DNA of 64,000 nt, taken from assembly GCA_963695555.1 (NCBI GenBank), contig CAVOGR010000001.1:992001-1056000 (forward strand), written 5' to 3'. This document shows positions 2,023 to 64,000 of this stretch, in pieces; the stretch's first letter is position 1, and each line of letters opens with the position of its first letter. The DNA comes from an uncultured Gemmatimonadales bacterium (lineage in GTDB: Bacteria > Gemmatimonadota > Gemmatimonadetes > Gemmatimonadales > GWC2-71-9). The translations under genes and the position numbers were made by a program. The notes beneath the pieces are model-generated. The model was not told the origin of the DNA. It made no database searches and saw only the letters and a program-made list of their open reading frames with translations.

Positions 2023-2097
2023 TCAGGGCCTGCCGTCCCCCCGGGCGGGCTGTTCCCAGACCCAGCACATAGTGAACCCGGTGGAAGGCAGGTCCCC

Positions 2098-3285: not shown

Positions 3286-3300
3286 CCGACCGAGGAGTCG

Positions 3301-3876: not shown

Positions 3877-3886
3877 GGAGCTGTCC

Positions 3887-44773: not shown

Positions 44774-45282
44774 AGGACGACGCGTTTTATCTCACACCGC
44801 ACGACGTGCGGGGGCAGGAGTTCCGCACCGCCTTCCGGGGTTTCAACCCGAGAGAGGTGGAGGACTTTCAGCTGCGGGTCTCGGAGGAGTTGGAGCGCCT
44901 GTTGCGTGAGCGGGCGCAGCTCGAGGAGCGGCTGCGCAACTTCCAAGAACAGTTGCGCGCCTTCCGCGATCGCGAGCGCGCCATGAACGAGGCCCTGCTG
45001 GCGGCGCAGCAGCTGCGGGTGGATGCCGCGAAAGAAGCGGACAGCGAATCGGAAGAGATCATTCGGCGGGCCAAGACCGAGGCGCTGAGAATCCTGGCCG
45101 AGGCCAAACAGAACGAGCGGCTGGTCCGGGAGCGCACCGAGGCGGGACGGCGCCAGTTTGCTGCCTTCCTGGCGAACTTCCGCGGCTTGCTCGAGCGGCA
45201 CCTCGGCGAGGTGGAGGGTCTCGAAGAGAATATCCGGAGCGCAACCGAGGCCCAGACGGAAGCCGTGCAGCGAAGGGCATGA
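44770..45282 (+). CDS. divIVA: DivIVA domain protein
   Basis: LTPHDV-x-x-x-EF-x-x-x-FRGF-x-x-x-EV-x-x-F followed by coiled coil. Confidence 0.88.
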   Translation: MKDDAFYLTPHDVRGQEFRTAFRGFNPREVEDFQLRVSEELERLLRERAQLEERLRNFQEQLRAFRDRERAMNEALLAAQQLRVDAAKEADSESEEIIRRAKTEALRILAEAKQNERLVRERTEAGRRQFAAFLANFRGLLERHLGEVEGLEENIRSATEAQTEAVQRRA

Positions 45283-49100: not shown

Positions 49101-49272
49101 AGAGGTGCTGGAAGCCGTGCGGACGCATGAGGCCTTCATTCGCGGGGAGACATTGGCCCGCGAGCTCCATGTCGGCGGCTCCCTCCACGCGCCCGACGTC
49201 GAGCGGGAAATCGACATCGATCAAACACGTGCGATCGTTGGCCTCAAGGCCCACGCGACGCCCACTGAGTAA
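46109..49272 (+). CDS. ileS: Isoleucine--tRNA ligase type 2, many apparent frameshifts
   Basis: EGPPTANG-x-PGIHH, GWDTHGLP, WTTTPWT, GSGLVHLAP, DWALSR-x-RYWGTP, DQTRGWFY, KMSKS in successive frames; indels cluster at 46335-47410, one more near 48590. Confidence 0.93.
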
Positions 49273-49300
49273 GAGGCATCGACTAAGGACATCTGAGCGC

Positions 49301-49684
49301 ATGAAGAAGAAGCAACTGGCCCATATCGAGCAGCGCCTGCTCGAGGAGCGGGCGCGAGTGATGAAGGAGTTGGGATTCTACGACGAATCGTTCGCCTCGA
49401 GCCTTCAGTCCTCGGATGGCGACCTTTCGTCCTATTCGTTCCATATGGCAGACCAAGGCACGGATGCGATGGAACGGGAAAAGCAATTCCTGATGGCCTC
49501 GAAGGAAGGCCGGTATTTGTGGCACGTGAACCAAGCGCTCCGGCGCTTGTACGGCGAGCCCAAATCATTCGGCACGTGCCACAGTTGCGGTACGGAGATC
49601 GATTTCGAACGGCTCGACGCACTGCCGCACGCCCGTCTGTGCATCACCTGCAAGGAAAAGGAAGAGGATGGCGAGCGGCGCTGA
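49301..49684 (+). CDS. TraR/DksA family C4 zinc-finger protein
   Basis: HMADQGTD coiled-coil tip; CHSC...RLDALP-x-x-RLCITC. Confidence 0.9.
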   Translation: MKKKQLAHIEQRLLEERARVMKELGFYDESFASSLQSSDGDLSSYSFHMADQGTDAMEREKQFLMASKEGRYLWHVNQALRRLYGEPKSFGTCHSCGTEIDFERLDALPHARLCITCKEKEEDGERR

Positions 49685-50177
49685 GCGACGCCTCTTCTGG
49701 GTTGTGCTGCTGCTGGTCGTGGTGCTCGATGCATCGACCAAACTGATCGCCGAGACATTCCTCCTCAGGACAGCGGCAACCCCAGTCGTAGGAGACTGGT
49801 TTCAGCTCCGCCTGGTGTATAACCAGGGGGCTGCCTTCGGGTTGCACGTGGGTCCATACTCTCGCTGGATCTTCTTCGCGGTCGCCGTTATAGCCGTCAT
49901 CGTGTTGCTGCGGATGTCCCGCCAGGGCGCCAGCGGTGACTGGTTCCGCCAGGGTGCCTTGGGCCTGGTGGCCGGCGGGGCAGCCGGCAATCTCATCGAT
50001 CGTATCCGAAGCGCCCGCGGTGTCGTGGATTTCCTCGATGTCGGCATCGGCACCCTGCGGTGGCCCACATTCAACGTCGCCGACATCGCCGTGAGTCTCG
50101 GTGCCATCGCCTTGGCCATCTCCCTCTGGCGGGAAGACGCTCGCCGGGCCCAGCCGGAGTCCGCCAGCGTCTCGTAA
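49668..50177 (+). CDS. lspA: Lipoprotein signal peptidase II
   Basis: NQGAAFG, GNLIDR, VVDF, FNVAD. Confidence 0.95.
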   Translation: MASGAERRLFWVVLLLVVVLDASTKLIAETFLLRTAATPVVGDWFQLRLVYNQGAAFGLHVGPYSRWIFFAVAVIAVIVLLRMSRQGASGDWFRQGALGLVAGGAAGNLIDRIRSARGVVDFLDVGIGTLRWPTFNVADIAVSLGAIALAISLWREDARRAQPESASVS

Positions 50178-50217
50178 CCCGCCTGCCCCCGCCGGCTCGT
50201 CCGGCGTCCACCTGTCG

Positions 50218-51204
50218 GTGCTCGTCGCGACGACGGAACGGCTCGACCGGTTCCTTGCTGATCAACTTGGCCTCTCCCGGACCCGTGCGGCTCGGCTCGT
50301 CGCCGGAGGCCATGTGTCCGTGGACGGGGTTCGCGCACGCGCGTCGCGCCGGTTGATCCGCGGGGAGCAGGTCACGGTGGAGGTTGCCGAGTCCGAGCCC
50401 CTGACAACGCTCAAGCCGGCGTCGATTCCCCTCACGGTGGTGTACGAAGACGAGGCGCTGGCGGTCATCGATAAGCCCGCCGGACTCGTCGTCCACCCTG
50501 CGCCTGGACATTGGGACGATACGTTGCTCAACGCATTGGTGGCGCGCGGGACGCCGTTGGCCGGTGGGGCGGAGGGCCGCCCCGGCATCGTGCATCGCCT
50601 GGATCGGGACACGTCGGGCCTCATGCTCGTGGCCAAGACGGAACAGGCACACCGGCGCTTGTCGAAGGCGTTGGCCTCCCGCCGGGTCTCCCGTTGCTAC
50701 GCGGCGATGACCTGGGGGCACCTGACCCAAAGCCCTACCACCATCGATGGCCCCATCGCTCGACATCCGGAGGATCGGAAGCGCATGACGGTGCTTGCCG
50801 GGGGCCGGTCGGCGCAGACCACCGCATGGGTCGTCGCACGCTACGGCCCCGTCGAACTGCTCCGCGTTGAACTCGGGACGGGCCGAACCCACCAGATCCG
50901 GGTCCACCTCAGCTACATCGGGCATCCGATCGTGGGTGACCCGGTCTACGGTGGTGGCGGAAGCCGGCGCATCTCGGGCCCCGATCGGAAGACCGCGGAG
51001 GCTATCGAGCGAGCGGCGCCACGCCAGGCACTCCACGCGGCGCTGCTCGGCTTCCGGCATCCGCTGACCGATGAGGAACTCGTGTTCACGTCCGAGTGGC
51101 CGGTCGATCTGAGGCCCGCGCTCGATGTGGCGGCAGATGACGCAAGTCTGGTTGCTGAAAGAGAACCGCTTCGGTATCTTCGTTTCTTCAATAGAGATGG
51201 CTAG
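50218..51204 (+). CDS. rluD: RluA-family pseudouridine synthase (RluD-like)
   Basis: S4 domain RLDRFL, HRLDRDTSG, GRTHQIRVH, LHA; start uncertain. Confidence 0.9.
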   Translation: MLVATTERLDRFLADQLGLSRTRAARLVAGGHVSVDGVRARASRRLIRGEQVTVEVAESEPLTTLKPASIPLTVVYEDEALAVIDKPAGLVVHPAPGHWDDTLLNALVARGTPLAGGAEGRPGIVHRLDRDTSGLMLVAKTEQAHRRLSKALASRRVSRCYAAMTWGHLTQSPTTIDGPIARHPEDRKRMTVLAGGRSAQTTAWVVARYGPVELLRVELGTGRTHQIRVHLSYIGHPIVGDPVYGGGGSRRISGPDRKTAEAIERAAPRQALHAALLGFRHPLTDEELVFTSEWPVDLRPALDVAADDASLVAEREPLRYLRFFNRDG

Positions 51205-51625
51205 TTCCGACCCGATGCGTGTGCTCGTCTTTCAGGTTGGAGACCTGGCATGCGGGATACCCGCCGAGTGGGTTCGCGAGGTCCTCCCGGCAGCCACGGC
51301 GACGCGAATCCCCGGTGCACACCCGGTCGTGGACGGCCTGGTCAACGTCCGCGGCAGGATTCTCACTGTGATCGACGGGCACCGCCTACTCAACCGAGCA
51401 CCGCTGCCCGAGCAAGAGGGGGTCACCATCATGGTGGACCTCGCCGGACACTCGTACGGTCTGCGGGTCAGCCAAGTGGACGATCTGTACGAAGTACGCG
51501 AGCAGGACCTCGAAGCGGCCACCGATGCGGCCGCAGGGCACGGTCATGTCGTGCAGGTCGAGGATGGCCCGCAGTTCGTTCTTCTCGGCATCGAATCCCT
51601 CCTGGCGCCGGTTGCCGGGACGTGA
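51197..51625 (+). CDS. cheW: Chemotaxis coupling protein CheW
   Basis: TRIPGA, GLVNVRG-x-I-x-x-VID, GLRV. Confidence 0.88.
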   Translation: MASSDPMRVLVFQVGDLACGIPAEWVREVLPAATATRIPGAHPVVDGLVNVRGRILTVIDGHRLLNRAPLPEQEGVTIMVDLAGHSYGLRVSQVDDLYEVREQDLEAATDAAAGHGHVVQVEDGPQFVLLGIESLLAPVAGT

Positions 51626-51686
51626 CCAACGACCGGGTTCCAGCGTTGTTTCCGTTGCAGTGTCCCGTTCTCCGTGGAGGCAGTCT

Positions 51687-52049
51687 GTGAGCCACACCAT
51701 CCTCGTGTGCGATGACGCGATCTTCATGCGGACGATGATCGGCGATATCCTCACCGGAGCCGGGTATGAGGTCGTCGGCGAGGCGGAGACCGGCGTCCAA
51801 GCGGTGGAGCAGTACTCTCGGCTGAAGCCCGATCTCGTCACGATGGACATCGTCATGCCCGAAATGGGGGGGATCGACGCCGTTCGCGAGATCCGGCGCC
51901 TGGACCCCGACGCCAAGATCCTGATGTGCAGCGCTATGGGACAACAGGCACTCGTGGTCGAGGCGATCCAAGCCGGAGCCAAGGACTTTGTCGTCAAGCC
52001 ATTCCAGCCGTCCCGTGTGCTCGAGGCCGTTCAGCGCGTGTTGGGGTGA
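51687..52049 (+). CDS. cheY: Single-domain response regulator CheY
   Basis: DD, MDIVMP, MCSAMGQQ, KPF; GGAGG RBS. Confidence 0.93.
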   Translation: MSHTILVCDDAIFMRTMIGDILTGAGYEVVGEAETGVQAVEQYSRLKPDLVTMDIVMPEMGGIDAVREIRRLDPDAKILMCSAMGQQALVVEAIQAGAKDFVVKPFQPSRVLEAVQRVLG

Positions 52050-52052
52050 GTC

Positions 52053-53918
52053 ATGGACCGTGCCCGGTATACGGACTTGTTCCTGACGGAGGGTCGCGAG
52101 CATCTCGTGACATGCGCCCACCTTCTGCTCGAATTGGAGCAGGCACCCCGTGAGCTGGAACCGGTCCATGGCCTCTTCCGTGCCATGCATACGCTCAAGG
52201 GAATGGCAGCCACGATGGGGTATTCGCAAGTCACCGATCTGTCCCACCAGATGGAAACCGTGCTCGACGCGGTGCGTCAGGGAGAGCGCCGGGTAAACCG
52301 CCCGCTCATCGATGTTCTTCTCGAGACGGTGGATGCGCTGACGGCGGGTATCGAAACCGCTGTTGCAGGCCAGGACGCCGAGTTGGATTTTCGGGACCTC
52401 CTGGCCCGGCTGAACAAGAGGCCGCGCACGCGCAAACGGGTATCGGGCGATGCCGTGATACCCGAGACGAAGCCATCGCCTGCCGGTATGTGGGTCGAGG
52501 TCGTGATCGATCCGGCCGCTCCGATGCGCGGAGGCCGAGCGGCGGTGCTTCTCCGCGAGGCCGAAGCACTTGGCGCCGTCAGCACAGTCACGCCCTCAGC
52601 CAGCGAACTCGAGCGCGAGTCCTTCACGGGCCAATTTGGGTTCCATTTGGCGTCGGACGCCGCGCCGGCAGCTATTGCGACGCGGCTGCGAACCGTTGGT
52701 GACGTGCTCGAAGTCACGTGTGTTCCCCGTTCACCGGGGAGCCGGACGCCAGGCCCCGCCGAACGGGACGCAGCCAAGCGGTCGACACCGACTGTTCGCG
52801 TCGATCGCCGCCGGCTGGATGCCCTGATGAATCAGATCGGTGAACTCGTCGTGACCAAGAACCGGCTGGCATCGCTGGCGGCCGCCGGCGGTGGGGAGTT
52901 CTCGGCGGCCATTGATAGGATGGCCCGTTTGGTGTCGGAGATGCAGGCAGAGGTCATGTTGGCCCGATTGACTCCGGTTGCGGAGGTTGTCGATCGGTTC
53001 CCTCGGATGGTGCGGGACTTGTCGCGCGTAGTGGGCAAAGAAGTGTCGCTCAACGTGGAGGGGCGCCACATCGAGGTCGATCGCTCGATCCTGGAACAAA
53101 TCGGCGAGCCGCTGCTTCACCTCCTCCGCAACGCTATGGATCACGGCATCGAGTCAGTGGAGGCTCGAGTGAAGGCGGGGAAGCCGCGCGCGGGACAGTT
53201 ATCGCTCATTGCGGCGCGCGAACGCAATAGCGTGACGTTCGAAGTGCGCGATGACGGTGCAGGAATCGACCGCGCGGCGATCCTGGAGAAGGCCAGGCGA
53301 GAGGGATCCGTGGCTGAGCCCGTGACCTCGTTGACGGACGAACAACTGCTCGAGGTGCTTGCACGCCCCGGCTTCAGTACGGCCGAGCGGGTGACGAGCG
53401 TGTCGGGGCGCGGTGTCGGTGTGGATGTGGTCCTCACGCGCATTCGGGCGTTAGGGGGGTCGGTCGAGATTCGATCGGAGGTCGGCCACGGAACGTCGGT
53501 AACCTTGCGGCTTCCACTCACGGTCGTCCTGTTGCGTGCCCTCCTGGCCCGGGTCGGGCAGGAACGGTATGTGATTCCGGTGACCCATGTCGCGGAAACG
53601 GTGTTCCTCGACTCGCGGAGCGCCACGACCCTCGACGGGCGGCAGGCGCTCACTCTGCGCGATCAAGTTATTCCCACGGTGCGGCTGCGCGATCTGGCAG
53701 GATTTCCCAACGAGCCCACCCCGGCACGGCAACCGTGCGTGGTGTTCGAGGTCGGTTCGCGGCGCACCGCCTTGGTGGTCGATGCCCTCCTCGGCCAGGA
53801 GGAGATCGTGGTCGAGCCCTTCGAGCCACCGAGTGGCACGCCGGCAGTGTTTAGCGGAGCAACCATCCTATCGGACGGAGTACCGTCCCTGATTCTCGAC
53901 GCCGCAGCCGTGGTATAA
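52053..53918 (+). CDS. cheA: Chemotaxis histidine kinase CheA
   Basis: HPt FRAMHTLKG, P2 domain, HLLRNAMDHG, DDGAG, SGRGVG, C-terminal CheW-like domain. Confidence 0.96.
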   Translation: MDRARYTDLFLTEGREHLVTCAHLLLELEQAPRELEPVHGLFRAMHTLKGMAATMGYSQVTDLSHQMETVLDAVRQGERRVNRPLIDVLLETVDALTAGIETAVAGQDAELDFRDLLARLNKRPRTRKRVSGDAVIPETKPSPAGMWVEVVIDPAAPMRGGRAAVLLREAEALGAVSTVTPSASELERESFTGQFGFHLASDAAPAAIATRLRTVGDVLEVTCVPRSPGSRTPGPAERDAAKRSTPTVRVDRRRLDALMNQIGELVVTKNRLASLAAAGGGEFSAAIDRMARLVSEMQAEVMLARLTPVAEVVDRFPRMVRDLSRVVGKEVSLNVEGRHIEVDRSILEQIGEPLLHLLRNAMDHGIESVEARVKAGKPRAGQLSLIAARERNSVTFEVRDDGAGIDRAAILEKARREGSVAEPVTSLTDEQLLEVLARPGFSTAERVTSVSGRGVGVDVVLTRIRALGGSVEIRSEVGHGTSVTLRLPLTVVLLRALLARVGQERYVIPVTHVAETVFLDSRSATTLDGRQALTLRDQVIPTVRLRDLAGFPNEPTPARQPCVVFEVGSRRTALVVDALLGQEEIVVEPFEPPSGTPAVFSGATILSDGVPSLILDAAAVV

Positions 53919-53927
53919 GGAGGCCTG

Positions 53928-54548
53928 ATGGCGGATCTGCGACAGCTCACGGATCTGGAAATCGACGCGCTACGTGAGGTTGCCAGCATCGGAGCCGGCC
54001 ACGCCGCGACGGCACTGTCGCAAATGATTGAGCGCACCGTCATGATCAGTGTGCCGACGGTGCGCGTTGTCCCGCTCGAGGAGGTCGGGCAGCTCGTAGG
54101 ACGCCCGGACGACATCGTAGCCGCCGTGTTGATGCACATGATGGGCGATCTCACGGGGCGCACCCTCCTGGTCTTTCCCGAGAGCGCCGCCAAGCAGCTC
54201 TGCGACATCTTGTTGCGACGAACCGGCGGGTCCACCCTGACATTCGCCGTCATGGAACAATCGGGTCTCAAGGAGGTCGGGAACATCCTCAGCAGCGCCT
54301 ATTTCAACGCGCTGAGCGATTTTATGGGCATGATGCTCATGCCATCGATTCCCAGCTTGGTGATTGACTATTCCGCGGCAGTGTTGACCAGCACCACCTT
54401 GAATTTTGGGCACGCGCGTGATTCCGTCCTGTGTGTGGAGACCGACCTCAGGGTGCGAGATTCCGGGGAAAAGGTGACGGGCCACTTCATGCTCATGCCG
54501 GATCTCCCGTCCTTGCAGGCCATCTTCGACGCCGTCCGCCTTGCGTAG
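53928..54548 (+). CDS. cheC: CheY-P phosphatase CheC
   Basis: DALREVASIGAGHAATALS and SGLKEVGNI repeats; AAGGAGG RBS. Confidence 0.92.
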   Translation: MADLRQLTDLEIDALREVASIGAGHAATALSQMIERTVMISVPTVRVVPLEEVGQLVGRPDDIVAAVLMHMMGDLTGRTLLVFPESAAKQLCDILLRRTGGSTLTFAVMEQSGLKEVGNILSSAYFNALSDFMGMMLMPSIPSLVIDYSAAVLTSTTLNFGHARDSVLCVETDLRVRDSGEKVTGHFMLMPDLPSLQAIFDAVRLA

Positions 54549-54551
54549 CGC

Positions 54552-57269
54552 ATGGATGTTTCTGCGCTGTCCGACCGCGACCTCTCCATCCTCCGCGCCT
54601 TCGCGTCGCGGGTCGATCCATCCGATGCGGGCGGCCACAACAATCTGGGCGTGCTGTATTTTCGCAAAGGCCTGATTCCGGAAGCCATCGCCCAGTTCAC
54701 TCACGCGCTCGAACTCGATCCTCGAATGCAGGTGGCGCAGGACAATCTGCGCCTGGCGTACCACGGCACCGGATACTACGATCGCCGAGTCACCGAACTC
54801 CGGGAACATCTGCGCCGCGAACCGGAGGACCGGGACGCCCGGTGGGAGTTGGGCAAGGTGTACGCCTCGTTGAGACAGTACGATGCGGCCGCGGCCGAAT
54901 TCGAAGCCTTGCTCGCTCGGCATCCGTACGACGTGCGCGCGGTCGTGCAGCTTGGCCTGTGTGAAAAGGCGCGCGGCAACATTCCCCGGGCCGAGGAGTG
55001 GTTCAGCCGGGCGTGTCGGCTCGATCCCGAGAGTCCGGTGGCACGGTTCTACCTCGGTGAGGCTCTCTACAACCGGGGGCTGAACGAGCAAGCCTTGGTC
55101 GAACTGTCGCAGTCGGTTAGCCTGAATTCCGATAACGCCGAGGCCCAATACATTCTCGGCTTCGTCTATGGCGATCTCGGCCGGCATGAGGAGGCGCGGC
55201 GTGCGACCCGCCGGGCCATCGAGCTGAACCCGACCCTTGGCCGCGCGCATGCCAACTTGTCGCTCCGCCCTGACGAGGGCAGCGAGGCGGGCCGGTCCGC
55301 TGCCGCACCGGGTGACGCGAACGACCTTGCGGTTGCCGAGAACACGGCGCTTGCCCACTACAATTTGGGACTGGCCTTCCGCCAAAAAGGATACCATGCG
55401 GAGGCCCTCCGCGAGTATCGGCTCGCCCTCGAACACGGGGAAGAGCGCCAGCTCGTCCTCCAAGCCATGGCCGAGGTCCACCTGCTCAAGCGCGACCTGA
55501 GCGCCGCGCTCGAATTGTACGACCGGTTGGTGGTGGATTATCCGGACTCTCCAAAGCTCTGGAATGAACGAGGCGTCTGCCTCCAACAGGCCGGCCGCCG
55601 AGAGGCCGCCCTCGAGTCCTATCAGAGCGCCGTCGGTACGGACGAGACCTACGCCCTCGCCTGGAACAACCTCGGCGTGGCCCAGGCCCAGGTGCCCGAC
55701 TTCGATGCCGCGTCCGACGCCTTCCGGGCGGCGATCCGCCATAAGTCGGATCTTCTCGCCGCGCGGCTCAACCTCGCACTGCTGCTCTTTCAGCGTCGCC
55801 GTTTCCAGCTCGCGCTGGAGGCCTACCGGCATGCGCTGGCGGACGATCCGGACAATGCGGTCGCCTGGAACGGTGTGGGCCTGATTCTCATGGAATTGAA
55901 GCGATACGCCGACGCCAAGAATGCTTTCGCCAGAGCCGTCGAGACAGACCCCGAGCACGCCCCGGCCCACTATAACCTGAGCTTCGTCTTGAGCCAGCTC
56001 GGCGATTTCGACGGTGCGCTGCGCGAAACCAAACATGCGCTCGAATTGGAATCGTACTATGTACCTCAGCGGTACGATTTGACGATCGACCTCCAGTACG
56101 AGCATACAACCATTTCTGTGGCCCCGGTGCTCTCGGGCGACGAAGTCGCGGGTGAATTGCCGGACGACTTCGTCTTCGACGAGCGATTACTCGACGATCT
56201 CTTTGCGACGTTGGCGCCGGATGCGGATCAGTCGGATGACACGGCTCCCCAGCCGGGGCGTGAGCTGTCGCTCGCCCTGGCGCGCGACTACATCAGCAAA
56301 GGCCTCTTGGAGCTGGCCACGGCCGAACTGAATCGAGCGCGCCGGCGGGGCGCTTCCGCTGGCCAAGTGGCCGCGCTGTTAGGCGACATTTTTGCCAGAC
56401 GAGGGCTGCACGGCGAGGCACTGGAACGCTACCGCGAGGCGATCGACCTGGATCACCGCGATCTGGACGCCCGGGTTGGCGAGGTGCAGAGCCTCCTCGC
56501 CCTCGATCGTCTTGGTGAAGCGGCGCAGTCAGCGTCCGATCTCGAACCCATGGCAGCCGGAAGCGTCGACGCCTTGATGGTCTGCGCCAAGGTGCGCGTG
56601 CGCGTGGGGGAGCTGGTCCCGGCCCTCGATCTGCTCAAGGCGGCGCAGGCCTCCGCCCCGGAACGGGGTGAACTCTACCAACTGCAAGCCCAAGCAGCTG
56701 TGAAACTCGGCGACCTGGAAGCGGCCAGCGACGCATACCGGCACGCGCTCGCGCTGGACCCCAACCTGGTCATGGTGTGGCATGAGGTCGGCCAGTTGGA
56801 AGAGGCCCGACGCGACTGGACCGCGGCACGGGCGGCTTATGCGCAGGCGCTGGATCTGCTCCCCACCTTCATGGACGCGACGCTGGCACTCGCGGACGGC
56901 ATGCGTCGGCACGAATCGCCGCGTCAAGCGGTGAGCTATTTGGTCGAAGTCCTGGCCAGCGACCCCTATGAGTTCGAGGCCCTGGTGCTGCTCGGCCGCA
57001 GCCTGCTCGACGACGGCCGCCCGGATCGTGCCATCGAGGCATTCGATCGCGTCCTCAGGTTTGTGCCAGATCATGCCGACGCGTTGTATTTTCGAGGGCT
57101 CGCGTTGGAGCGGCAGCGGCGATTGGCAGAGGCCGTGGAATCCTGGCACCAGGCCATCCAATCCAATCCCGCCGGCCAGTACGCCCAGGCTGCCCGCCTC
57201 AGGATGCGGTCGGCCCGGGACCTCTCCGAAATCTTCAAGGTGCCGAGTGGAGTGAACGGTGGCGATTGA
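54552..57269 (+). CDS. Large cytoplasmic TPR protein (905 aa)
   Basis: Many TPR units (HNNLG, YNLG, WNNLG) with an acidic linker; no signal peptide. Confidence 0.9.
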   Translation: MDVSALSDRDLSILRAFASRVDPSDAGGHNNLGVLYFRKGLIPEAIAQFTHALELDPRMQVAQDNLRLAYHGTGYYDRRVTELREHLRREPEDRDARWELGKVYASLRQYDAAAAEFEALLARHPYDVRAVVQLGLCEKARGNIPRAEEWFSRACRLDPESPVARFYLGEALYNRGLNEQALVELSQSVSLNSDNAEAQYILGFVYGDLGRHEEARRATRRAIELNPTLGRAHANLSLRPDEGSEAGRSAAAPGDANDLAVAENTALAHYNLGLAFRQKGYHAEALREYRLALEHGEERQLVLQAMAEVHLLKRDLSAALELYDRLVVDYPDSPKLWNERGVCLQQAGRREAALESYQSAVGTDETYALAWNNLGVAQAQVPDFDAASDAFRAAIRHKSDLLAARLNLALLLFQRRRFQLALEAYRHALADDPDNAVAWNGVGLILMELKRYADAKNAFARAVETDPEHAPAHYNLSFVLSQLGDFDGALRETKHALELESYYVPQRYDLTIDLQYEHTTISVAPVLSGDEVAGELPDDFVFDERLLDDLFATLAPDADQSDDTAPQPGRELSLALARDYISKGLLELATAELNRARRRGASAGQVAALLGDIFARRGLHGEALERYREAIDLDHRDLDARVGEVQSLLALDRLGEAAQSASDLEPMAAGSVDALMVCAKVRVRVGELVPALDLLKAAQASAPERGELYQLQAQAAVKLGDLEAASDAYRHALALDPNLVMVWHEVGQLEEARRDWTAARAAYAQALDLLPTFMDATLALADGMRRHESPRQAVSYLVEVLASDPYEFEALVLLGRSLLDDGRPDRAIEAFDRVLRFVPDHADALYFRGLALERQRRLAEAVESWHQAIQSNPAGQYAQAARLRMRSARDLSEIFKVPSGVNGGD

Positions 57270-58407
57270 AGGGCCGCTAAAAGAACTCCACATCGACGAC
57301 GTCTTCCAGCTCATGGACTTGGGCCGAAAGACCGGCGTCCTGCACGTCACGTCCGAGCTGCGGGAAAACGCAGGCACCGTGTTCTTCGAGAACGGGTGGG
57401 TGGTGGGTGCCATGATCGCGACCAATCCGCATCCACTCGGGGAGCTGTTGATCCGGACGGGGAAAGTGGCCGAAGAAGACGTCGTCCGTGCACGGACCCT
57501 TCAGACAAGCCGCCCAGGCCGGCGCTTGGGGGAGCTGTTAGTGGAGATCGGAGCGATTTCCCGTCGGGAACTCGACCGACACATCCGTGCGCAGGTCGAG
57601 GAAGTCGTCTTCGAGTTGATGAGTTGGTCCGAGGGATACTTCCGCTTCGAGGAGGGAGAGCCGGGGCAGACTCCGGCCGAAGCCTCGTTTCGAATCGCAC
57701 CGGAGGCGCTGCTCATGGAGGCGGCGCGACGAATCGATGAATGGAGTCGGATCGTCGCCAAGATTCCGCATCAGGGGGTAGTGCCGGGGCTCAATCCGGA
57801 ACAGGCCACCGCCACCGCCGCGCTGGAACTGGTCCCGTTCGAGTGGGAAGTGCTTGCGGCCGTCGATGGAACGGCCACGGTTCGCGACGTGGCCCGGCGG
57901 GTTCGACAGCCCGAGTTCGACGTCGCCAAGACGCTCTTTGGACTCGCGTCGGCCGGCATCATCATCATCCGCGATGCGACGACCGACGGCGGCAACGGTG
58001 CCGGCCGGGGAGTGGAGGTGCTGTCGGCCCAGGCCGATGACCACCTCCAGGCTGGGGACCTGGCCGGAGCCCACCTCGTGGCCCAGGACGCCGTCCTCGC
58101 CTATCCCGACGACGGGGAGGCCTTTCTCGTCCTCGCCCGGGTGTCCCTTGCCAACGGGCGATTCGGCGAAGCCCTGGATGCCGCTCATCGGGCGCTTGCC
58201 CTCCAAGGTCAAACGGGGCCTGGACTTCGGCTGCTCGGTCTGGCTCTTGCAGGGGCAGGTCGTTTTGGGGACGCCTTGGGAGCGTGGGACCGCTGGAAGG
58301 GCTTGGAGACCATGGATCCAGCCGAACGAAGACATTGGGACACGATCGATCGCCTGGAGGATGCGGCGAAGCTCTTGAATAATGCGGTCCGTGGGCGCCA
58401 TGAGTGA
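57259..58407 (+). CDS. DUF4388 (PATAN-like) + MshEN-like + wHTH-like + TPR protein
   Basis: EGPLKEL-x-x-x-DVFQL...KTG, RLGELL, WSEG-x-F-x-F, LLMEAARRIDEW, VDGTATV. Confidence 0.88.
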   Translation: MAIEGPLKELHIDDVFQLMDLGRKTGVLHVTSELRENAGTVFFENGWVVGAMIATNPHPLGELLIRTGKVAEEDVVRARTLQTSRPGRRLGELLVEIGAISRRELDRHIRAQVEEVVFELMSWSEGYFRFEEGEPGQTPAEASFRIAPEALLMEAARRIDEWSRIVAKIPHQGVVPGLNPEQATATAALELVPFEWEVLAAVDGTATVRDVARRVRQPEFDVAKTLFGLASAGIIIIRDATTDGGNGAGRGVEVLSAQADDHLQAGDLAGAHLVAQDAVLAYPDDGEAFLVLARVSLANGRFGEALDAAHRALALQGQTGPGLRLLGLALAGAGRFGDALGAWDRWKGLETMDPAERRHWDTIDRLEDAAKLLNNAVRGRHE

Positions 58408-59248
58408 CAGTATCCGGGCCATGACGGCCCAGCTGGTCAGCGATCCCGCCAGCATGATCTTCCTGCCGCTGGGAGAGGCCCTGCGCCAGCGCGGACAGCT
58501 CGACGCCGCCGAGAAAGTGGCGCTGGCTGGCCTTGGGCGCTACTCCGAATCGGCCGATGCGCACGACCTGTACGCCAGGATTCTCGGGGATCGCGGTCAA
58601 CTCGAATTGGCATTCGATGAGTGGGACATCGCCCTCCGGCTGGAGCCGGACCACGTCGGGGCGCACAAAGGCATCGGGTTCCTGTATTTCGTGGCTGGCG
58701 AGCTCGACCGGGCATTGGCCCACCTCGAGACGGCCGCCCGGAAGCTGCCGGACGATGATGGGGCCCAAACAGCCCTGGCTCGGGTCAAGGAGGCTCTCGC
58801 TCGCCGAGCGGCGGCAGGGAATGGGGCCGGACGGGAGACAGATACGGCGGTGCTGACTGAGGAGCAGGCGGTGGTACCCGGTGCCGACCCATCCCGGCTG
58901 TTCCTGGGCTTGGAAGGAGCCGAGGACGGCCTCCTGCTTCTCGATACGAGGGGACTTCGCCTCGGTGGTGGATTGACCAGTCCCGAGGGCGACGACGTAG
59001 CCGATGCCGTCTCGGCCCACCTCGCGGGCGTGTCGCAGGAAGCTTCCCGCACTGCCCGGCTACTCGGGCTGGGGGCGTGGATCAGCCTGGCTGCAGAGTC
59101 GCCGGATGGTCATCTGTTCGTGGTGGCTCCAACGCCGGAGACTCTGTTGCTTCTCGTTCGGGAGCAGAGCGTTCCCTTGGGACGCCTGGGCGTGGTTGCC
59201 GACCATGCGGCCGGGGTCGCGCGGGCTTGGCTCGAGGGATTGCAGTGA
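58400..59248 (+). CDS. TPR + C-terminal roadblock/LC7 protein
   Basis: DPAS-x-x-F-x-x-LGEALR TPRs; LLLLDTRGL...ETLLLL...PLGRL. Confidence 0.82.
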   Translation: MSDSIRAMTAQLVSDPASMIFLPLGEALRQRGQLDAAEKVALAGLGRYSESADAHDLYARILGDRGQLELAFDEWDIALRLEPDHVGAHKGIGFLYFVAGELDRALAHLETAARKLPDDDGAQTALARVKEALARRAAAGNGAGRETDTAVLTEEQAVVPGADPSRLFLGLEGAEDGLLLLDTRGLRLGGGLTSPEGDDVADAVSAHLAGVSQEASRTARLLGLGAWISLAAESPDGHLFVVAPTPETLLLLVREQSVPLGRLGVVADHAAGVARAWLEGLQ

Positions 59249-59595
59249 TGCCGGAGTTCGCAACTGCACTCGACTTGATCACCCGGGTCCACGGCGTCCG
59301 CGGCGCCATGCTGGTGTCAGTCTCAGACGGACTCGTTGTCGCCGAATCGTCCATGGACGGTGTGGACGGCGCGCCGGTCGCGGCGCTCACCGCAAGCCTT
59401 GCCGGCCGGCTGCGGCGCACCACTGAAGCGGCGGGACGACGACTGCCGACCTTCATCCACCTCCGGGCGGCAACAGGGACCGTGCTCGCGGTGCCGTCCA
59501 ACGACGACCTGCTCGTCGTGACGATTGGCGCTCCGGACATCAATGTCGGCCTGGCTCGGTTGGAAATGCTCCACGTCGCGGAGCGAGGGATTTGA
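59248..59595 (+). CDS. Roadblock/LC7 protein (MglC-like)
   Basis: VHGVRGAMLV-x-x-x-DGLVV, NVGLARLEM; TGATG coupling. Confidence 0.85.
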   Translation: MPEFATALDLITRVHGVRGAMLVSVSDGLVVAESSMDGVDGAPVAALTASLAGRLRRTTEAAGRRLPTFIHLRAATGTVLAVPSNDDLLVVTIGAPDINVGLARLEMLHVAERGI

Positions 59596-60056
59596 TGCGA
59601 GCCGTTGAGCCATGGGTGGAAGGTCCGCTCGCGGCGTTCCTGGATGAGTCGGCTGCGCGGCTCACGCTGTTGATGACCTCGGCTGGCCAGGTACTGGCCC
59701 AGCATGGGTTCACGCGCGCCTTCGACGTCATGTCTGCCGCGGCGTTGGGCGCTGGGATCATGGCGTCGACCGACGAGCTTGCGCGTCTGATGGACGCGCC
59801 GCCCTTTCGCGCCTTGGCGCACCAGGGAGTCCATCACGGCTTGTTCCTTTCCGGCTTCGACACGCCCCAAGGACGGTGGATCGGACTCGTGGTCTTCGGG
59901 CCTGAGAGTTCACTCGGGCTGGTTCAGCTGTTCTTCCAGCGCCTCGTGGCGGACTTGGCCAAGCAGGCCCCGACCGAAGCTCCAAGCAACCGGGTGTTGG
60001 GATCAGATTTCGAGGACGAGCTCAACGCCAGCCTGCGAACCCTTTTCGGTCAGTAG
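59595..60056 (+). CDS. mglB: MglB-like roadblock protein (putative GAP of MglA)
   Basis: AAALGAG-x-x-A-x-x-x-x-LARL, HQG, VVF-x-x-x-SSLGLV, C-terminal amphipathic helix; adjacent to mglA. Confidence 0.8.
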   Translation: MRAVEPWVEGPLAAFLDESAARLTLLMTSAGQVLAQHGFTRAFDVMSAAALGAGIMASTDELARLMDAPPFRALAHQGVHHGLFLSGFDTPQGRWIGLVVFGPESSLGLVQLFFQRLVADLAKQAPTEAPSNRVLGSDFEDELNASLRTLFGQ

Positions 60057-60059
60057 CAT

Positions 60060-60662
60060 ATGTCGCTTGTCAACTTCACGTCCCGCGAGATCACCTGTAA
60101 GATCGTCTATTACGGACCAGGCCGATCCGGCAAGACGAGCAATCTTCAGTACATCTATGGTCGGGTTCCGGAAGCGCGCCGGGGCCGCATGGTGTCGCTC
60201 GCCACCAAAGGCGACCGCACGCTGTTTTTCGATTTTCTCCCGCTCGAGCTCGGGACAATCTCAGGATTCGTCACACGATTCCAGTTGTACACCGTGCCCG
60301 GGCAGGTGTACTACAATGCGACCCGGAAGCTGGTGTTGCAGGGTGCAGACGGTATCGTTTTTGTGGCCGACAGCCAAGCCCGGCGATTCGACGATAACCT
60401 CGAGAGCCTCCAGAACCTGCAAGAGAATTTGCTCGCGCACGGTGTCGATATTCGGGAATTGCCCCTCGTCTACCAATACAACAAGCAGGATCTCCCTGCG
60501 GATCTCATCCTCGGGCCGGACGAACTCGATGATGCCTTGAATTTTCGAGCGGTCCAGAGCTTCGGCGCCGATTGTCTGAGCGGGAACGGCGTGTTTGAGA
60601 CATTGCGGGGCATTTCAGAGCTCGTGTTGAAGCGCCTGGCCGCGGGGAGCCGGGTTGCGTGA
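60060..60662 (+). CDS. mglA: MglA-family small GTPase
   Basis: KIVYYGPG-x-SGKTSNL, DRTLFFDF, YTVPGQ, NKQD. Confidence 0.95.
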   Translation: MSLVNFTSREITCKIVYYGPGRSGKTSNLQYIYGRVPEARRGRMVSLATKGDRTLFFDFLPLELGTISGFVTRFQLYTVPGQVYYNATRKLVLQGADGIVFVADSQARRFDDNLESLQNLQENLLAHGVDIRELPLVYQYNKQDLPADLILGPDELDDALNFRAVQSFGADCLSGNGVFETLRGISELVLKRLAAGSRVA

Positions 60663-62611
60663 TCTCGCTGCTCAAGCCCTCGTGTCGCTTCACCACGTTG
60701 GTGGTGGCACCCACCAACCAACTTGCGGTGACCGCGGCCCGGGCCGTGGCGGACTCTCCGGGCCGCATCTATAACCCGCTCTACATTTACGGTGGGCCAG
60801 GACTGGGCAAGACCCACCTGCTGATGGCCATTGGGCACTCGGTGTTGGACATCGACCCCTCGTGCACCGTGGAATACCTGAGCATCGAGGACTTCGCCTC
60901 TGCCTGGCCCACTGCGAGGAATGCCGGCGAAGAGGAAGCCTACCGCCGGCACTATGTCGAGGCCGAGGTGCTGCTGCTGGATGACATTCACCTCCTCGCC
61001 TATCGTCGCGACCTGCAGCTGGAAATTCTCCGGGTTCTCGACAGTGTGCTCGAGCGGAATCACCAGGTCGTCATGGCATCTGATCGGGCGCCGAACCGGA
61101 TCGACGGATTGGACGAGCGTCTGGCACGGCGTTGTGCCGCTGGCTTGGTGACCGATGTAGCTACCCCGGCGCCCGAGACCCGGCTCGAGGTCGTGCGCCG
61201 CAGGGTGCAGGAGCGCGGCGCGGTGTTCCACCCGGACATCCTCGAACTGCTGGCCGGCGCCGGCCAATCGGATCTCCGACAGCTGCTCGCTCTCGTGGAC
61301 AAGTTTCAAGAGGTGCAGCGGCGCACGCATCTGCCGCTCACCGTCGAGGCGGCCCGGGGACTCCTCAACGACATGGGCCTGGCAGAGGCCACCGGTCCAG
61401 CCGGTGACGGTCAAAGTCTTCGGCCTCACGCCGACGAGTTCGGAACCTTTCTTAGCGATGTGACCACCACCGTGGCCGGACAGCTCGAAGCGTGGCGAAG
61501 TCGAGTGGCCGAGGCCATCCTCCGGTGGGAGGGGGAAGGATTCCGCACTCGCCGCCTCGAGGCGTTGCTCCAGGCCGATCTTCCAGCGGATCCCAACGCG
61601 ATTCTCGAATCTTTCACGGCCGATGTGGAACGGCTGCGCGGTCTCGAATCAGAAGCCCAGACCGTATCGCCCGACCTGGTCGGGTCGCCGTTGTTCCGGG
61701 ATCCGGACCAGGTGGCCGCCGCCGCCGCCTTGGTCGAGCATGCGAGGCAAGGCCGGCATCCGCTTCCGGCGCCTTCTCGCATGTGGCGCCTAGAGGACCT
61801 CGTCGAGGCGCCGGGCAATCTGGACGCGCTCAGCTCGGCGTGGCGTGTCATAGACCAACCGGGAACCCGTCACAACCCGCTCGCTGTCGTTGCGCCGAGC
61901 GGGTGTGGGAAGACCCATGTGCTCCATGGCATCGCCAACAAGCTCGCGGAGGCACCCAACGCGACGATCGCATGTCTCACCGCCAGCGACTTCATCGCGG
62001 ACCTCGAGGCGGCGCGCGAGGCCAACCGGCTCTCGGCCTGGCAATCACGGTATCGCGGGGTAACCGGGCTCCTGATCGACGACATCCACCGGTGGGCCGA
62101 CCACCCGCCGCTCGGCGCCGAGCTGGTGGAGCTGCTCGACGCACTGCTCGAGGCCCGCGCCCAACTGGTGGTCAGCTCGGTCGTTCCCCTGCCGCAGTTG
62201 GCGCTGGACCGGGGCATCATGGACCGCCTCCAGGGCGGCCTCGTTGTGGCCCTCGCTCCTCCAGACCGTGACATCCGGTCCCGCGTCGTCGAGCGACTCC
62301 TGGCCGCCAAGCTCAGTCTGGTGGATCCCGAGCTGACATCCTACCTGGCGAATCGACCGGCGGAGTCGGTGCGAAGTCTGCAAGGCCTGGTGCACCGGTT
62401 GCTCAACAACGCCGAGGTCCAAGGGAAAACGCCGACGGTGGCGTTTGCCCGCGAGCTCCTGGAGGGAATGCCGCAGGCGCCGCCCGCCCGCGAGCAGAGA
62501 ACCCGGCTGAGCGGTGTTGTGGTGCCTGTGGCCGGCGGCCTCCGGAGCCGCGAGAAAATGGTCTGGCATTGGCCCGATGCCGGTGACCGGGTAGTGGAGG
62601 AGTGGAGCTGA
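60659..62611 (+). CDS. Tandem DnaA/Hda-like AAA+ ATPase without DNA-binding domain
   Basis: YNPLYIYGGPGLGKTHLL + LLLDDIH and HNPL...APSGCGKTHVL + LLIDDIH; no DnaA domain I or IV. Confidence 0.88.
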   Translation: MISLLKPSCRFTTLVVAPTNQLAVTAARAVADSPGRIYNPLYIYGGPGLGKTHLLMAIGHSVLDIDPSCTVEYLSIEDFASAWPTARNAGEEEAYRRHYVEAEVLLLDDIHLLAYRRDLQLEILRVLDSVLERNHQVVMASDRAPNRIDGLDERLARRCAAGLVTDVATPAPETRLEVVRRRVQERGAVFHPDILELLAGAGQSDLRQLLALVDKFQEVQRRTHLPLTVEAARGLLNDMGLAEATGPAGDGQSLRPHADEFGTFLSDVTTTVAGQLEAWRSRVAEAILRWEGEGFRTRRLEALLQADLPADPNAILESFTADVERLRGLESEAQTVSPDLVGSPLFRDPDQVAAAAALVEHARQGRHPLPAPSRMWRLEDLVEAPGNLDALSSAWRVIDQPGTRHNPLAVVAPSGCGKTHVLHGIANKLAEAPNATIACLTASDFIADLEAAREANRLSAWQSRYRGVTGLLIDDIHRWADHPPLGAELVELLDALLEARAQLVVSSVVPLPQLALDRGIMDRLQGGLVVALAPPDRDIRSRVVERLLAAKLSLVDPELTSYLANRPAESVRSLQGLVHRLLNNAEVQGKTPTVAFARELLEGMPQAPPAREQRTRLSGVVVPVAGGLRSREKMVWHWPDAGDRVVEEWS

Positions 62612-64000
62612 TGGCCATCAAGGGCAGCCTCAAAGAGGCCAGTCTTCCCGATGTGATTCAGCTTCTGGCCATGGGCCAGAAGACGGGCTGCTTGGCCGTC
62701 GCCCACCGCCACAATTTCGGCTACGTCTACTTCCGAAACGGCCGCATCATCTACGCCTCCATTGTCAACCGGCGCGATCGGCTCGGCGATATCCTGGTGA
62801 ACAGCGGTCGAATCTCCCCCGAGCAATTGGCGCAAGCCATCGACCTGCAAGGCACATTCGATGACAAGAAGCTCGGCCAGATATTGGTCGATACCGGAGC
62901 GATTTCGCGCGAGGAATTGGTGCAGTACGTGGCCTTACAAATCGAGGAGGCCGTCTATTTCCTCTTCACGTGGAACTCGGGAACATTCAATTTCGAAGTC
63001 GATGTGCAGCCTGCAAGTCAGGATGTGCTCGTCTCCATCGCCCCGGAAACATTGCTGCTCGAGGGCGCCAGGCGGGTCGACGAGTGGAGTCTCATCCAAC
63101 ACAAGATCCCGAGCTTCGATCTCATCTTCGAAGTCCGCGAGAGCCGGATCGCCGCGTCGACAGCCACGCTCTCTCCAGAACAAGAGCGGTTGCTCCCCCT
63201 TCTCGACGGACAGCGCGACGTCAGCCAATTGATCGACGCGGCCGGCATGGGTGAATTCGAGGTGGGCAAGGCACTCTTCGGGCTGATCACGGCCGGCTTC
63301 GTTCACCGTGTCGGCACGTCGGCCACGAGTGAAGTCAGCCGGGCCAACGAGGGGCGGATCGAGGAGCACCGCAATCTCGGAATCGCCTTCTACCGGGCCA
63401 GCATGTTGGAGGAGGCCGAGAGGGAATTCCGGCGCGTGGCGGAACTGCGCCCCGCCGATGGGAACGCACCTTTTCATCTCGGACTCATTGCTGTCAAGCA
63501 CGGACGGTGGGAGGAAGCGATCGCGATGTTCCAACGTGCGGTGGAGAAGGGAGGACCGCGTGCGAGTGCGCTCCACAACTTGGCATTCGCCATGGAGCGA
63601 CTCGGGCGGCTGACCGAAGCCGAAGCCACCTATGCGGCGGCCGTCGACAGGGCGCGGGACAATCCGCGCATCATGCTGGGGTGGGGGATCTCGGCACTGC
63701 TGCGCGAAGACCACGCGCTGGCGTCCGCGCGCCTGATCCGGGCGCGGGAACTCATGGGCGAGGCGGATCCGCCCGCTACCTGGTACTGGGCGGCGACACT
63801 GGCGCATGCCGGGTCCGGCAACCAGGCCGCGGCATTGGAGGTGGCTCAGGCAGGAGTGGCGTCCTATCCGGCGAGCGCCGTGTTGAACAACAATCTCGCG
63901 GTGCTCTTGGAGTTGAACGGGGACATCGCCGGCGCCGAGACGCAGCTCGACCGCGCGTTTACCGAGGAGCCCACGCTGCCGCAGATCTCGAAGAACATGG
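62611..64000 (+). CDS. DUF4388 + MshEN-like + wHTH-like + TPR protein, runs off the window
   Basis: Not in ORF track; own translation MAIKGSLKEASLPDVIQLL...RLGDIL...LLLEGARRVDEW...HRNLGIAFY; frame stays open to 64000; TGATG coupling. Confidence 0.9.
   Translation, partial: MAIKGSLKEASLPDVIQLLAMGQKTGCLAVAHRHNFGYVYFRNGRIIYASIVNRRDRLGDILVNSGRISPEQLAQAIDLQGTFDDKKLGQILVDTGAISREELVQYVALQIEEAVYFLFTWNSGTFNFEVDVQPASQDVLVSIAPETLLLEGARRVDEWSLIQHKIPSFDLIFEVRESRIAASTATLSPEQERLLPLLDGQRDVSQLIDAAGMGEFEVGKALFGLITAGFVHRVGTSATSEVSRANEGRIEEHRNLGIAFYRASMLEEAEREFRRVAELRPADGNAPFHLGLIAVKHGRWEEAIAMFQRAVEKGGPRASALHNLAFAMERLGRLTEAEATYAAAVDRARDNPRIMLGWGISALLREDHALASARLIRARELMGEADPPATWYWAATLAHAGSGNQAAALEVAQAGVASYPASAVLNNNLAVLLELNGDIAGAETQLDRAFTEEPTLPQISKNM

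Follow-up and report, generated by a model that had tools for sequence, protein, structure and literature searches.

We describe a 650-residue ATPase encoded near the end of a 64,000-nt stretch of the genome of an uncultured Gemmatimonadales bacterium (contig CAVOGR010000001.1, positions 992,001 to 1,056,000 of the forward strand; hereafter the window, meaning the whole stretch that was analysed). The protein carries two AAA+ modules of the DnaA domain III type in a single chain. Its gene lies between mglA, which encodes a Ras-like GTPase, and a gene for a protein that combines a PATAN domain, a MshEN-like motif and tetratricopeptide repeats (TPR), here called the PATAN/TPR protein. We hold, with slightly more belief than doubt, that the ATPase represents an 'orphan' DnaA-domain-III family of Gemmatimonadota, which serves as the nucleotide-switch subunit of a PATAN/MshEN-like/TPR polarity and chemosensory module and is not a replication initiator. 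Of its two neighbours, it is PATAN/TPR, on the downstream side, that is the conserved partner of the ATPase, and not mglA.

The open reading frame (ORF) of the ATPase starts with GTG. The Pfam profile PF00308 (Bac_DnaA) matches its product in two stretches with 226 bits in total, the better of which covers residues 6–166 and profile positions 2–162 of 162. A six-frame search of the genome with the same profile places module 1 at C1:1052674-1053156 and module 2 at C1:1053784-1054248 (C1, contig 1; bit scores in Table 1). Residue 4 of the ATPase aligns to residue 110 of Bacillus subtilis DnaA (8btg), which is the start of domain III; domains I and II are not found, the alignment beginning at that point, and PF08299, the DnaA-box-binding helix-turn-helix (HTH) of domain IV, has no Pfam match in the 650-residue protein. 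The DnaA equivalog model TIGR00362 scores 349.2 bits, over its cut-off of 343.9 only as the sum of two partial matches to model positions 104–339. All Hda models of NCBIfam fall below their cut-offs on the ATPase, with 144.2 against 194.8 for TIGR03420, 47.4 against 297 for PRK09087 (residues 389–606) and 39.2 against 268 for PRK08084. In addition, PF01695 matches both modules (55.1 bits).

An AlphaFold2 model of the ATPase, built from a 34-sequence alignment (mean predicted local distance difference test score (pLDDT) 86.2, predicted template modelling score (pTM) 0.44), contains a pair of alpha/beta AAA+ modules, both of which carry a lid, and helices 260–363 between them. Residues 245–261 and 611–632 are disordered in the model, and the last 20 residues have a pLDDT of ~60. 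In Foldseek, the modules superimpose on DnaA domain III of B. subtilis (8bv3_A; template modelling (TM) score to the target 0.96, root-mean-square deviation (rmsd) 1.4 Å) and of Thermotoga maritima (TM score to the target 0.94, rmsd 1.2 Å). At the sequence level, module 1 aligns with domain III of B. subtilis DnaA at an E value of 1.1e-42, while the best solved relatives of module 2 are the Hda-like chains 3sc3 and 3bos (E ~3e-5). Both modules are modelled with the two-helix insert, placed between beta2 and the Walker B strand, that is specific to the initiator clade. Specifically, helices 76–88 and 92–100 lie between strands 71–75 and 104–108 in module 1, and helices 442–454 and 458–466 lie between strands 437–441 and 470–474 in module 2.

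The nucleotide-site motifs are present in both modules. In module 1 they comprise K51 of Walker A, D108/D109 of Walker B, R154/R158 of box VII and R207 of sensor II, and in module 2 K418, D474/D475, R523 (the Arg-finger equivalent) and R572 of sensor II. The first box VII arginine of module 2 is a glycine (G519) in the window protein; R523 is retained. These catalytic residues (Walker A/B, box VII and sensor II, both modules) are kept in 117–121 of 121 close homologues. Among 34 diverse members, all 34 have the Walker A lysine in both modules and 29 have the module 2 Arg finger. Taken together, the conserved motifs, the two-helix insert and the modelled DnaA domain III fold make it likely that the ATPase is active. 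A first-pass annotation of the window, made from the sequence letters, had proposed two AAA+ modules that both hold Walker A/B as well as box VII-like and sensor II-like motifs, a helical linker between them and the absence of DnaA domain IV; the Pfam matches, motif counts and fold model agree with it on each of these points.

The linker is specific to the family. It carries, in order, the motifs DEFGxFLS, WR..ILRWEGEG.RT.RLE, FRDPD and PxPS, and when folded alone it forms a three-helix bundle (pLDDT 84.7). Foldseek with the linker model returned nothing at E <= 0.001, the best Z score of VIA-align (6.4, to EzrA, rmsd 4.8 over 113 residues) is helical-bundle background, and a protein-atlas search gave no usable match. 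No fold is assignable to the linker, and no HTH appears in it by Pfam or among the structural matches, which stay at background level. A hidden HTH, the finding that the first-pass annotation had said would overturn it, was looked for in the whole ATPase by Pfam and in the linker also by fold, and none was found. A sequence search with the linker only recovered 306 proteins, and the organism-named ones are all from Gemmatimonadota except one metagenome-assembled genome (MAG) labelled Bacillota.

The two-helix insert raises another possibility, that the ATPase forms an ATP-dependent filament bound to the nucleoid or to single-stranded DNA (ssDNA) and positions the polarity module relative to the chromosome, with a DNA-binding surface made by the initiator-specific motif and a ParA- or MinD-like role carried out by AAA+ chemistry. 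The insert, which in DnaA contacts ssDNA (structure 3r8f), is present in the modelled secondary structure of both modules, and the ATP motifs are intact. However, Pfam and the linker fold comparisons give no double-stranded DNA-binding domain. Furthermore, the module 1 position equivalent to E. coli V211/B. subtilis I190, presumably an ssDNA-contacting residue, is a proline here and a histidine in the family consensus (the position was found by counting back from Walker B on the sequences), and the one- and no-module forms of the family described below keep the genomic role. We consider a filament of this kind very unlikely.

A complete dnaA is present elsewhere in the genome, on contig 2 (about C2:397461-398858; locus L001, ORF 1150-2547). 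It encodes 465 residues, scores 236.6 bits with PF00308 and 94.1 bits with PF08299, and accounts for the sole PF08299 match of the genome; the genome's single dnaN match, at C2:399081, is directly downstream (assembly completeness 87.1%). The ATPase gene is thus not the only dnaA, and no dnaN lies near it, the window being on contig 1. Given the complete dnaA-dnaN pair on contig 2, the tandem ATPase is a paralogue and not the initiator. This separate pair and the lack of an HTH also bear out the idea, put forward in the first-pass annotation, of a replication-initiator ATPase that has been repurposed. An initiator for a second replicon was considered and rejected, as the protein has no domain IV and the chromosomal backbone is conserved across families.

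A word-indexed protein search, in which 8000 candidates were scored, gave 3270 proteins at E <= 0.001. The best 120 of these homologues are 640–687 residues long and align over at least 99% of the query with 48–97% identity, and the organism-named proteins among them are from Gemmatimonadota. In a 301-genome sample of the phylum, the family was counted as present at a best E <= 1e-50, a threshold of our own that takes account of the 1e-35 to 1e-49 given by canonical DnaA alone. By this count the ATPase family occurs in ~194 of 300 sampled genomes: 122/125 in the window's family (f1), 52/69 in f2 (which includes the unpublished genome G157, used for these counts alone), 3/3 in f3, 5/6 in f4, 1/1 in f5, 3/4 in f8, 8/47 in f7, and 0/45 in f6, f9, f10, f11 and f12. 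On the strength of these sequence matches, the ATPase family seems confined to Gemmatimonadota. An assembly chimera was rejected as an explanation, full-length ATPase homologues being found in more than 100 independent assemblies.

A maximum-likelihood tree was quickly inferred for 76 sequences of domain III, taken from 17 of our 34 aligned family members, from canonical DnaAs (27 of other phyla and 6 of Gemmatimonadota) and from E. coli Hda; support values are from the Shimodaira–Hasegawa-like approximate likelihood ratio test (SH-aLRT) with no bootstrap, and the Hda branch is long. Module 2 forms one clade (94), 21 of 22 module 1 rows form another (99), and support for uniting the two is weak (80). 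The DnaAs of Gemmatimonadota make up a clade apart (98), placed among those of other phyla. This topology suggests that the paralogue is old and that its two modules probably arose by internal duplication. Other architectures were seen among the 150 best representatives: P0175 and P0178 are proteins of 1876 and 1990 residues with an N-terminal MshEN and two DnaA-III modules far apart, P0232 has tandem DnaA-III followed by a C-terminal receiver domain, and P0194 is a tandem DnaA-III protein in which domain IV of DnaA is retained. The joining of duplicated DnaA engines to signalling domains may thus be a more general theme.

The ATPase gene belongs to a tightly packed che-mgl-ATPase-PATAN/TPR cluster on one strand. 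The gene is translationally coupled to both neighbours: the TGA of mglA overlaps the GTG of the ATPase gene by 4 nt (GTGA at 60659-62), and the ATPase stop shares one base with the PATAN/TPR ATG (TGATG), a 1-nt overlap that recurs in 41 of 57 loci. We searched 50 related loci, which cover the window's order and its sister family, by tblastn with eleven window proteins, and the cluster proved colinear in all 50. Ten of these came from a contig scan and 40 from 40 genomes of 31 genera; the scan, run with a narrower alignment, gave 80 loci, 70 of them the ordinary dnaA of other phyla caught through the Walker A pattern and 10 of them family members, and the remaining loci were taken by coordinates from the genome survey. 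mglA is immediately 5′ of the ATPase in all 50 loci, and the PATAN/TPR gene is immediately 3′ in 49, the contig of the 50th ending first. CheA is found in 46 of the 50 (3 of the other 4 end before reaching cheA), and MglB also in 46. The mglA-ATPase-PATAN/TPR order extends to f5 and f8 loci, and with remnants of the ATPase included, the PATAN/TPR gene follows directly in 58 of 59 loci; the contig of the 59th ends first. Most genomes of these families have two MglA genes, of which the one in the cluster is the better match to the window MglA. The window genome likewise has two MglA matches, and in the phylum survey the best MglA match is directly upstream of the ATPase.

The arrangement is different in f7. 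All three f7 loci examined have rluD, ATPase, PATAN/TPR, peptidase and an NtrC-type regulator in a row, with no che or mgl block and no mglA or mglB within 9 kb, and the genomes of these loci contain a single MglA, which stands alone. The coupling to mglA proposed in the first-pass annotation is therefore upheld by the GTGA overlap and by the 50 of 50 loci of the window's order and sister family, but it fails in f7, where homologues unlinked to mglA are found in 3 of 3 loci and the PATAN/TPR gene is still adjacent. Separately, 4 of 5 f7 MglA matches (G288:C3:783946-784530, G159:C193:4652-5233, G249:C1:688718-689296 and G224:C1:1031110-1031691) have one in-match TGA, which may simply reflect an alignment that, at its end, runs past the natural stop.

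The number of modules varies across the family. In the window's order (f1–f3) and in f4, two live modules are found, arranged as module 1, linker, module 2 and tail. In the three f7 loci module 2 is dead; Walker A, Walker B and the lid are lost and box VII (RLRSRFEGGL) is kept. A single module is present in f5, f8 and genome G283 of f2, the f5 and f8 proteins comprising ~400 residues with module 1, linker and tail. In three f2 genomes (G228, G114 and G168) there is no module, and an ORF of 70–90 residues stands between mglA and PATAN/TPR (L140:10560-10830, L142:10560-10920 and L143:9740-10030) and retains just two motifs of the family, EFxxFLxxV, the first of the linker, and that of the tail (...VxWP....hIEELR). 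Every form with a module retains Walker A and B in module 1. The reduction series and the f7 loci together point to an invariant core of two proteins, the first bearing the tail and the second being PATAN/TPR; both the AAA+ modules and the che-mgl block are elaborations added to this core in particular lineages. The covalent pseudo-dimer suggested by the first-pass annotation fits f7, where module 2 has no Walker A/B and keeps box VII, but two modules are dispensable in the family, as the one- and zero-module forms show. The mini-ORF of L142 is separated from the PATAN/TPR start by a short peptide repeat in tandem (RDASM-like).

The same series can be read as favouring a mainly structural scaffold, in which the function resides in the DEFxxFL helix and the tail, the AAA+ modules give bulk or dimerisation, and the nucleotide sites bind ATP without cycling. 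The mini-ORFs reduced to linker helix motif and tail, the dead module 2 of f7 and the repeated loss of the ATPase would all fit. However, the catalytic residues of both modules are nearly invariant in the window's clade, which is unexpected for a passive spacer, and the retention of Walker A/B in module 1 wherever a module exists also speaks against it; a scaffold is in our judgement improbable.

The first-pass annotation had further suggested a modulator of the true DnaA that ties polarity to the cell cycle. In that case the ATPase would act like Hda, through a hetero-AAA+ interface with DnaA-ATP in which an Arg finger enters the DnaA site, or the reverse, and the frequency of initiation would be linked to the polarity, division or cyclic di-GMP (c-di-GMP) state of the hub. 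Module 1 does resemble DnaA domain III very closely, both box VII and sensor II have been retained, Hda models match both halves below their cut-offs, some tandem relatives, such as P0194, have domain IV, and the surrounding backbone is division-associated (yggS-divIVA-...-ileS-lspA-rluD upstream and mraW-ftsI downstream). Nevertheless, domain III is preceded by no N-terminal extension able to hold a clamp-binding motif of the Hda kind, dnaA and dnaN are on another contig, and the modules stand apart from the clade of the phylum's own DnaA in the tree. Moreover, the Arg-finger equivalent of module 1 is variable, being present in just 18 of 34 diverse members, and the invariant features are instead the tail and the PATAN/TPR neighbour, which persist in mini-proteins that have no AAA+ module. 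A tie of the ATPase to DnaA or the cell cycle is thus a minority reading, and we think direct modulation of DnaA unlikely.

The Trp-rich C-terminal tail described in the first-pass annotation (...REKMVWHWPDAGDRVVEEWS) is present, and its residues E632, K633, W638 and P639 occur in 121 of 121 close homologues. The tail is kept in f7, in the one-module proteins of f5, f8 and G283, and in the mini-ORFs of G228, G114 and G168. A regular expression for the tail, applied to 57 ORFs ending at the PATAN/TPR start, matches 51 of them, and 5 of the 6 misses are variants by eye; at L099 the tail is absent from the ORF picked, and a frameshift is possible.

The downstream PATAN/TPR protein has 542 residues when its full ORF is read from a GTG at 62602, and its orthologues have 537–573, mostly 537–543. 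Residues 56–113, a helical insertion in the PATAN domain, match NF053729 (MshEN-related c-di-GMP motif; 53.6 against a cut-off of 38) and resemble residues 300–352 of the Thermus thermophilus pilus ATPase PilF (6f8l), which makes this MshEN-like segment a candidate c-di-GMP receptor. PATAN domains are encoded in this cluster only within the genome. The best natural sequence matches of the TPR region include the TPRs of O-GlcNAc transferase.

Complex prediction was run on an f5 pair of orthologues with our own alignments for both chains, which included the window proteins. The f5 pair was chosen because its 401-residue, one-module ATPase holds every constant element. The predictions for the ATPase and PATAN/TPR protein scored 0.83, 0.74 and 0.83 (median 0.83), and all three controls scored 0.00; in two of them the partner was unrelated, and in the third an unrelated protein stood in for the TPR chain. 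By the calibration of the predictor, which holds only roughly where own alignments are used, 116 of 157 solved complexes and 2 of 215 mismatched pairs attain the mark. The runs share at least 40% of contacts, with a partner pLDDT of at least 64. The sole confident interface places ATPase tail residues 372–398 in the TPR solenoid, residues 263–495, and the groove in the model is lined by conserved Asn and Lys. In particular, N325, N428, N429, Q459, K462 and N463 (f5 numbering) are 79–97% conserved and identical in the window protein. The model thus predicts that the tail occupies the TPR solenoid groove in the manner of a peptide; it supports tail–TPR binding without showing it. Four residues follow the motif in the f5 protein, so the free carboxylate is probably not the docking anchor.

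In the nucleotide-switch scheme that we prefer, ATP binding would close an Arg-finger/ATP interface, as in DnaA, DnaC, IstB and ORC, either between modules 1 and 2 of one chain or between chains, and closure would alter the conformation or oligomeric state of the ATPase. In f7 only the Arg-finger side of module 2 is kept, which suggests an action of module 2 on the site of module 1. The tail would tether the ATPase to the PATAN/TPR hub, and the ATP cycle would thereby gate or cluster the hub. In the window's lineage, the hub module would include a dedicated MglA–MglB GTPase pair, and hub gating would feed into the output of the MglA polarity switch. By analogy with known systems, the module probably serves to place type IV pili or some other machine for motility, with CheA/CheY and c-di-GMP as inputs. 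The genome has genes for seven PilB/PilT/GspE-type ATPases outside the cluster.

Several observations weigh against the scheme or loosen its parts. The cluster contains no pilus gene, and a pilus or motility output is inferred by analogy only. Some lineages have lost the ATPase but retain mglA and PATAN/TPR, which makes it accessory and not core, and the Arg finger of module 1 is variable. The placement of one module against the other is not confident in the model, as the pTM indicates. Docking was modelled on the f5 orthologues instead of the window pair; the contact residues are not significantly more conserved than the rest of the TPR region (0.63 against 0.59, permutation p ~0.10); and TPR–peptide complexes abound in the solved structures, so that general likeness may account for some of the score. 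All organisms concerned are uncultured MAGs. In favour of the scheme, weak support comes from one estuary metatranscriptome library, which contains 88% of the region's sampled words. All 30 bins of 51000-64000 are covered by contigs of this RNA library; one of 2265 nt, with 3 differences, runs from mglB through mglA into the ATPase gene (58590-60854), and one of 2437 nt bridges the ATPase-PATAN/TPR junction (62139-64000), but such contigs may hold DNA, give no strand, ends or single transcript, and come with no silent control region.

Among known systems, the ATPase shares with DnaA the AAA+ fold, the two-helix insert, Walker A/B, the box VII Arg finger, sensor II and the lid. Unlike DnaA, it has no domains I, II and IV, carries two modules per chain with a linker and tail of its own, and is encoded in a che/mgl/PATAN operon instead of beside dnaN or an origin. 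Hda is a single module with an N-terminal clamp-binding motif. Hda and HdaA resemble the ATPase in consisting of DnaA domain III only, Hda regulates through its AAA+ interface, and the nearest solved relatives of module 2 are Hda-like; the ATPase, in contrast, has two modules and no N-terminal extension, scores below the cut-offs of the Hda models and has another operon context. DnaC and IstB are likewise initiator-clade ATPases without a sequence-specific DNA-binding domain and act as ATP switches on a partner. The likeness of the ATPase to them is much weaker than to DnaA, however, no helicase or transposase partner is encoded nearby, and its predicted partner-binding element is a C-terminal peptide instead of an N-terminal domain. 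An IS21-type helper was considered and rejected, with no transposase present and synteny stable across the order. To our knowledge, when DnaA-type AAA+ modules serve neither replication nor the direct control of replication, they are found mainly in helicase loaders and IS21 helpers.

For the predicted docking, the EEVD peptides and the Asn ladder are the precedent for TPR docking. The acidic-hydrophobic C-terminal peptide of the ATPase, predicted in a TPR groove, recalls the docking of Hsp70/Hsp90 EEVD with Hop/CHIP and of peptides in the TPR lumen of O-GlcNAc transferase; it differs from EEVD in its motif, its greater length (~20 residues) and its invariant Trp.

The bacterial polarity modules that we know of so far are built from GTPases, roadblock proteins acting as GTPase-activating proteins or guanine nucleotide exchange factors, response regulators, and TPR or PilZ adaptors. 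The window cluster shares MglA, roadblock, large TPR, PATAN and CheA/CheY proteins with the MglA-MglB(-MglC)-SgmX system of Myxococcus xanthus and with cyanobacterial PATAN regulators, none of which has been described with a DnaA-type ATPase. In M. xanthus, MglA and the TPR protein SgmX drive pilus formation (PMC7519303), and in Synechocystis PATAN response regulators bind the pilus motor (10.1101/2021.06.11.447907). The gene linkage of PATAN with MglA/MglB has already been published (PMC4316618). The gene-neighbourhood passages of that article mention no DnaA-type neighbour and 'DnaA' does not occur in its text, while its supplementary table S2 could still list such neighbours. A literature search of full texts, supplementary tables being outside its scope, found no paper linking a DnaA-type ATPase to MglA, PATAN/DUF4388 or Gemmatimonadota.

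The features of the cluster and of the ATPase are collected in Table 1.

Table 1. Genes of the cluster and parts of the ATPase (window coordinates).
Feature	Position	Strand	Basis or remark
cheY	51525-52049	+	chemosensory head of cluster
cheA	52053-53918	+	chemosensory head of cluster
cheC	53928-54548	+	chemosensory head of cluster
TPR protein, 905 aa	54552-57269	+	colinear in related loci
PATAN+TPR protein, 382 aa	57259-58407	+	colinear in related loci
TPR protein, 288 aa	58382-59248	+	colinear in related loci
Second roadblock/LC7 protein, 172 aa	59077..59595	+	PF03259 38.9 bits; MglC-like by position only
mglB-like roadblock protein, 154 aa	59592..60056	+	NF052242 MglB E 8.9e-9, below cut-off; PF03259 weak
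mglA paralogue, 200 aa	60060..60662	+	E 1.5e-69 to M. xanthus MglA 6h17; a true MglA
Double DnaA-domain-III ATPase gene, 650 aa	60659..62611, including stop	+	ORF list and translation
Module 1, complete DnaA-type AAA+ with lid, residues 1-240	60659..61378	+	PF00308 150 bits
Family-specific helical linker, residues 245-380	61391..61798	+	conservation, fold model
Module 2, more divergent DnaA-type AAA+ with lid, residues 381-606	61799..62476	+	PF00308 83.5 bits
C-terminal tail, residues 630-650, SREKMVWHWPDAGDRVVEEWS	62546..62608	+	predicted docking peptide for the downstream TPR domain
PATAN (DUF4388)/MshEN-like c-di-GMP motif/TPR protein	62611..64000, past window edge	+	domain matches

Beyond the PATAN/TPR gene, the cluster continues with cheD, a TPR gene, an MA-type peptidase gene and another TPR gene. 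In L130, cheD and the MA-type metallopeptidase gene lie 3′ of PATAN/TPR at 2082-4648; a peptidase is found 3′ of PATAN/TPR in the f7 locus L126 as well, and so it may belong to the conserved core. The two tandem roadblock/LC7 genes 5′ of mglA (59077-60056) recall MglC and MglB of Myxococcus. The first of these ORFs overlaps the TPR gene at 58382-59248 by ~170 nt, and it probably starts further downstream than listed.

The cluster is flanked by a backbone of yggS, divIVA, a purine nucleoside phosphorylase gene, ileS, a DksA/TraR zinc-finger gene, lspA and rluD upstream, and mraW (rsmH) and ftsI ~6 kb downstream (window 44084-51204; L130:7180-10362). The polarity cluster is thus inserted into an ancient division-associated gene string. 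In the window, ileS (46123-49272) is spread over three overlapping frames (46123-47253, 47049-48848 and 48484-49272) that encode successive parts of the enzyme, with two apparent frameshifts; it is one 1072-residue ORF in the relative L126, and the break in the window may be an assembly error or real.

The modules are still DnaA-like and could for that reason enter joint assemblies at the origin, with DnaA-ATP or ssDNA. In a bolder version, which we hold to be distinctly unlikely, the self-assembly engine of DnaA would have been exapted as a polarity regulator of a new kind, a switch tethered by its tail that polymerises or closes on ATP and so clusters or releases a c-di-GMP-sensing PATAN/TPR hub at the pole, and through such co-assembly the MglA switch would read the replication state.

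The family also matters for annotation. Pipelines of the Joint Genome Institute (JGI) call homologues of the ATPase 'chromosomal replication initiator protein DnaA', and this misnaming, together with the pass in TIGR00362, can mislead origin finding and dnaA counts in Gemmatimonadota MAGs. The reduction series offers a natural dissection of the protein, from two modules through a live and a dead one to a single module and a tail-only mini-protein, and the 20-residue tail in a defined TPR groove is a testable prediction. If our reading is right, the initiator engine would have found a new use in Gemmatimonadota, duplicated, without DNA recognition and wired into a Ras-like GTPase/PATAN/TPR cluster, and bacterial polarity modules would gain a new class of component.

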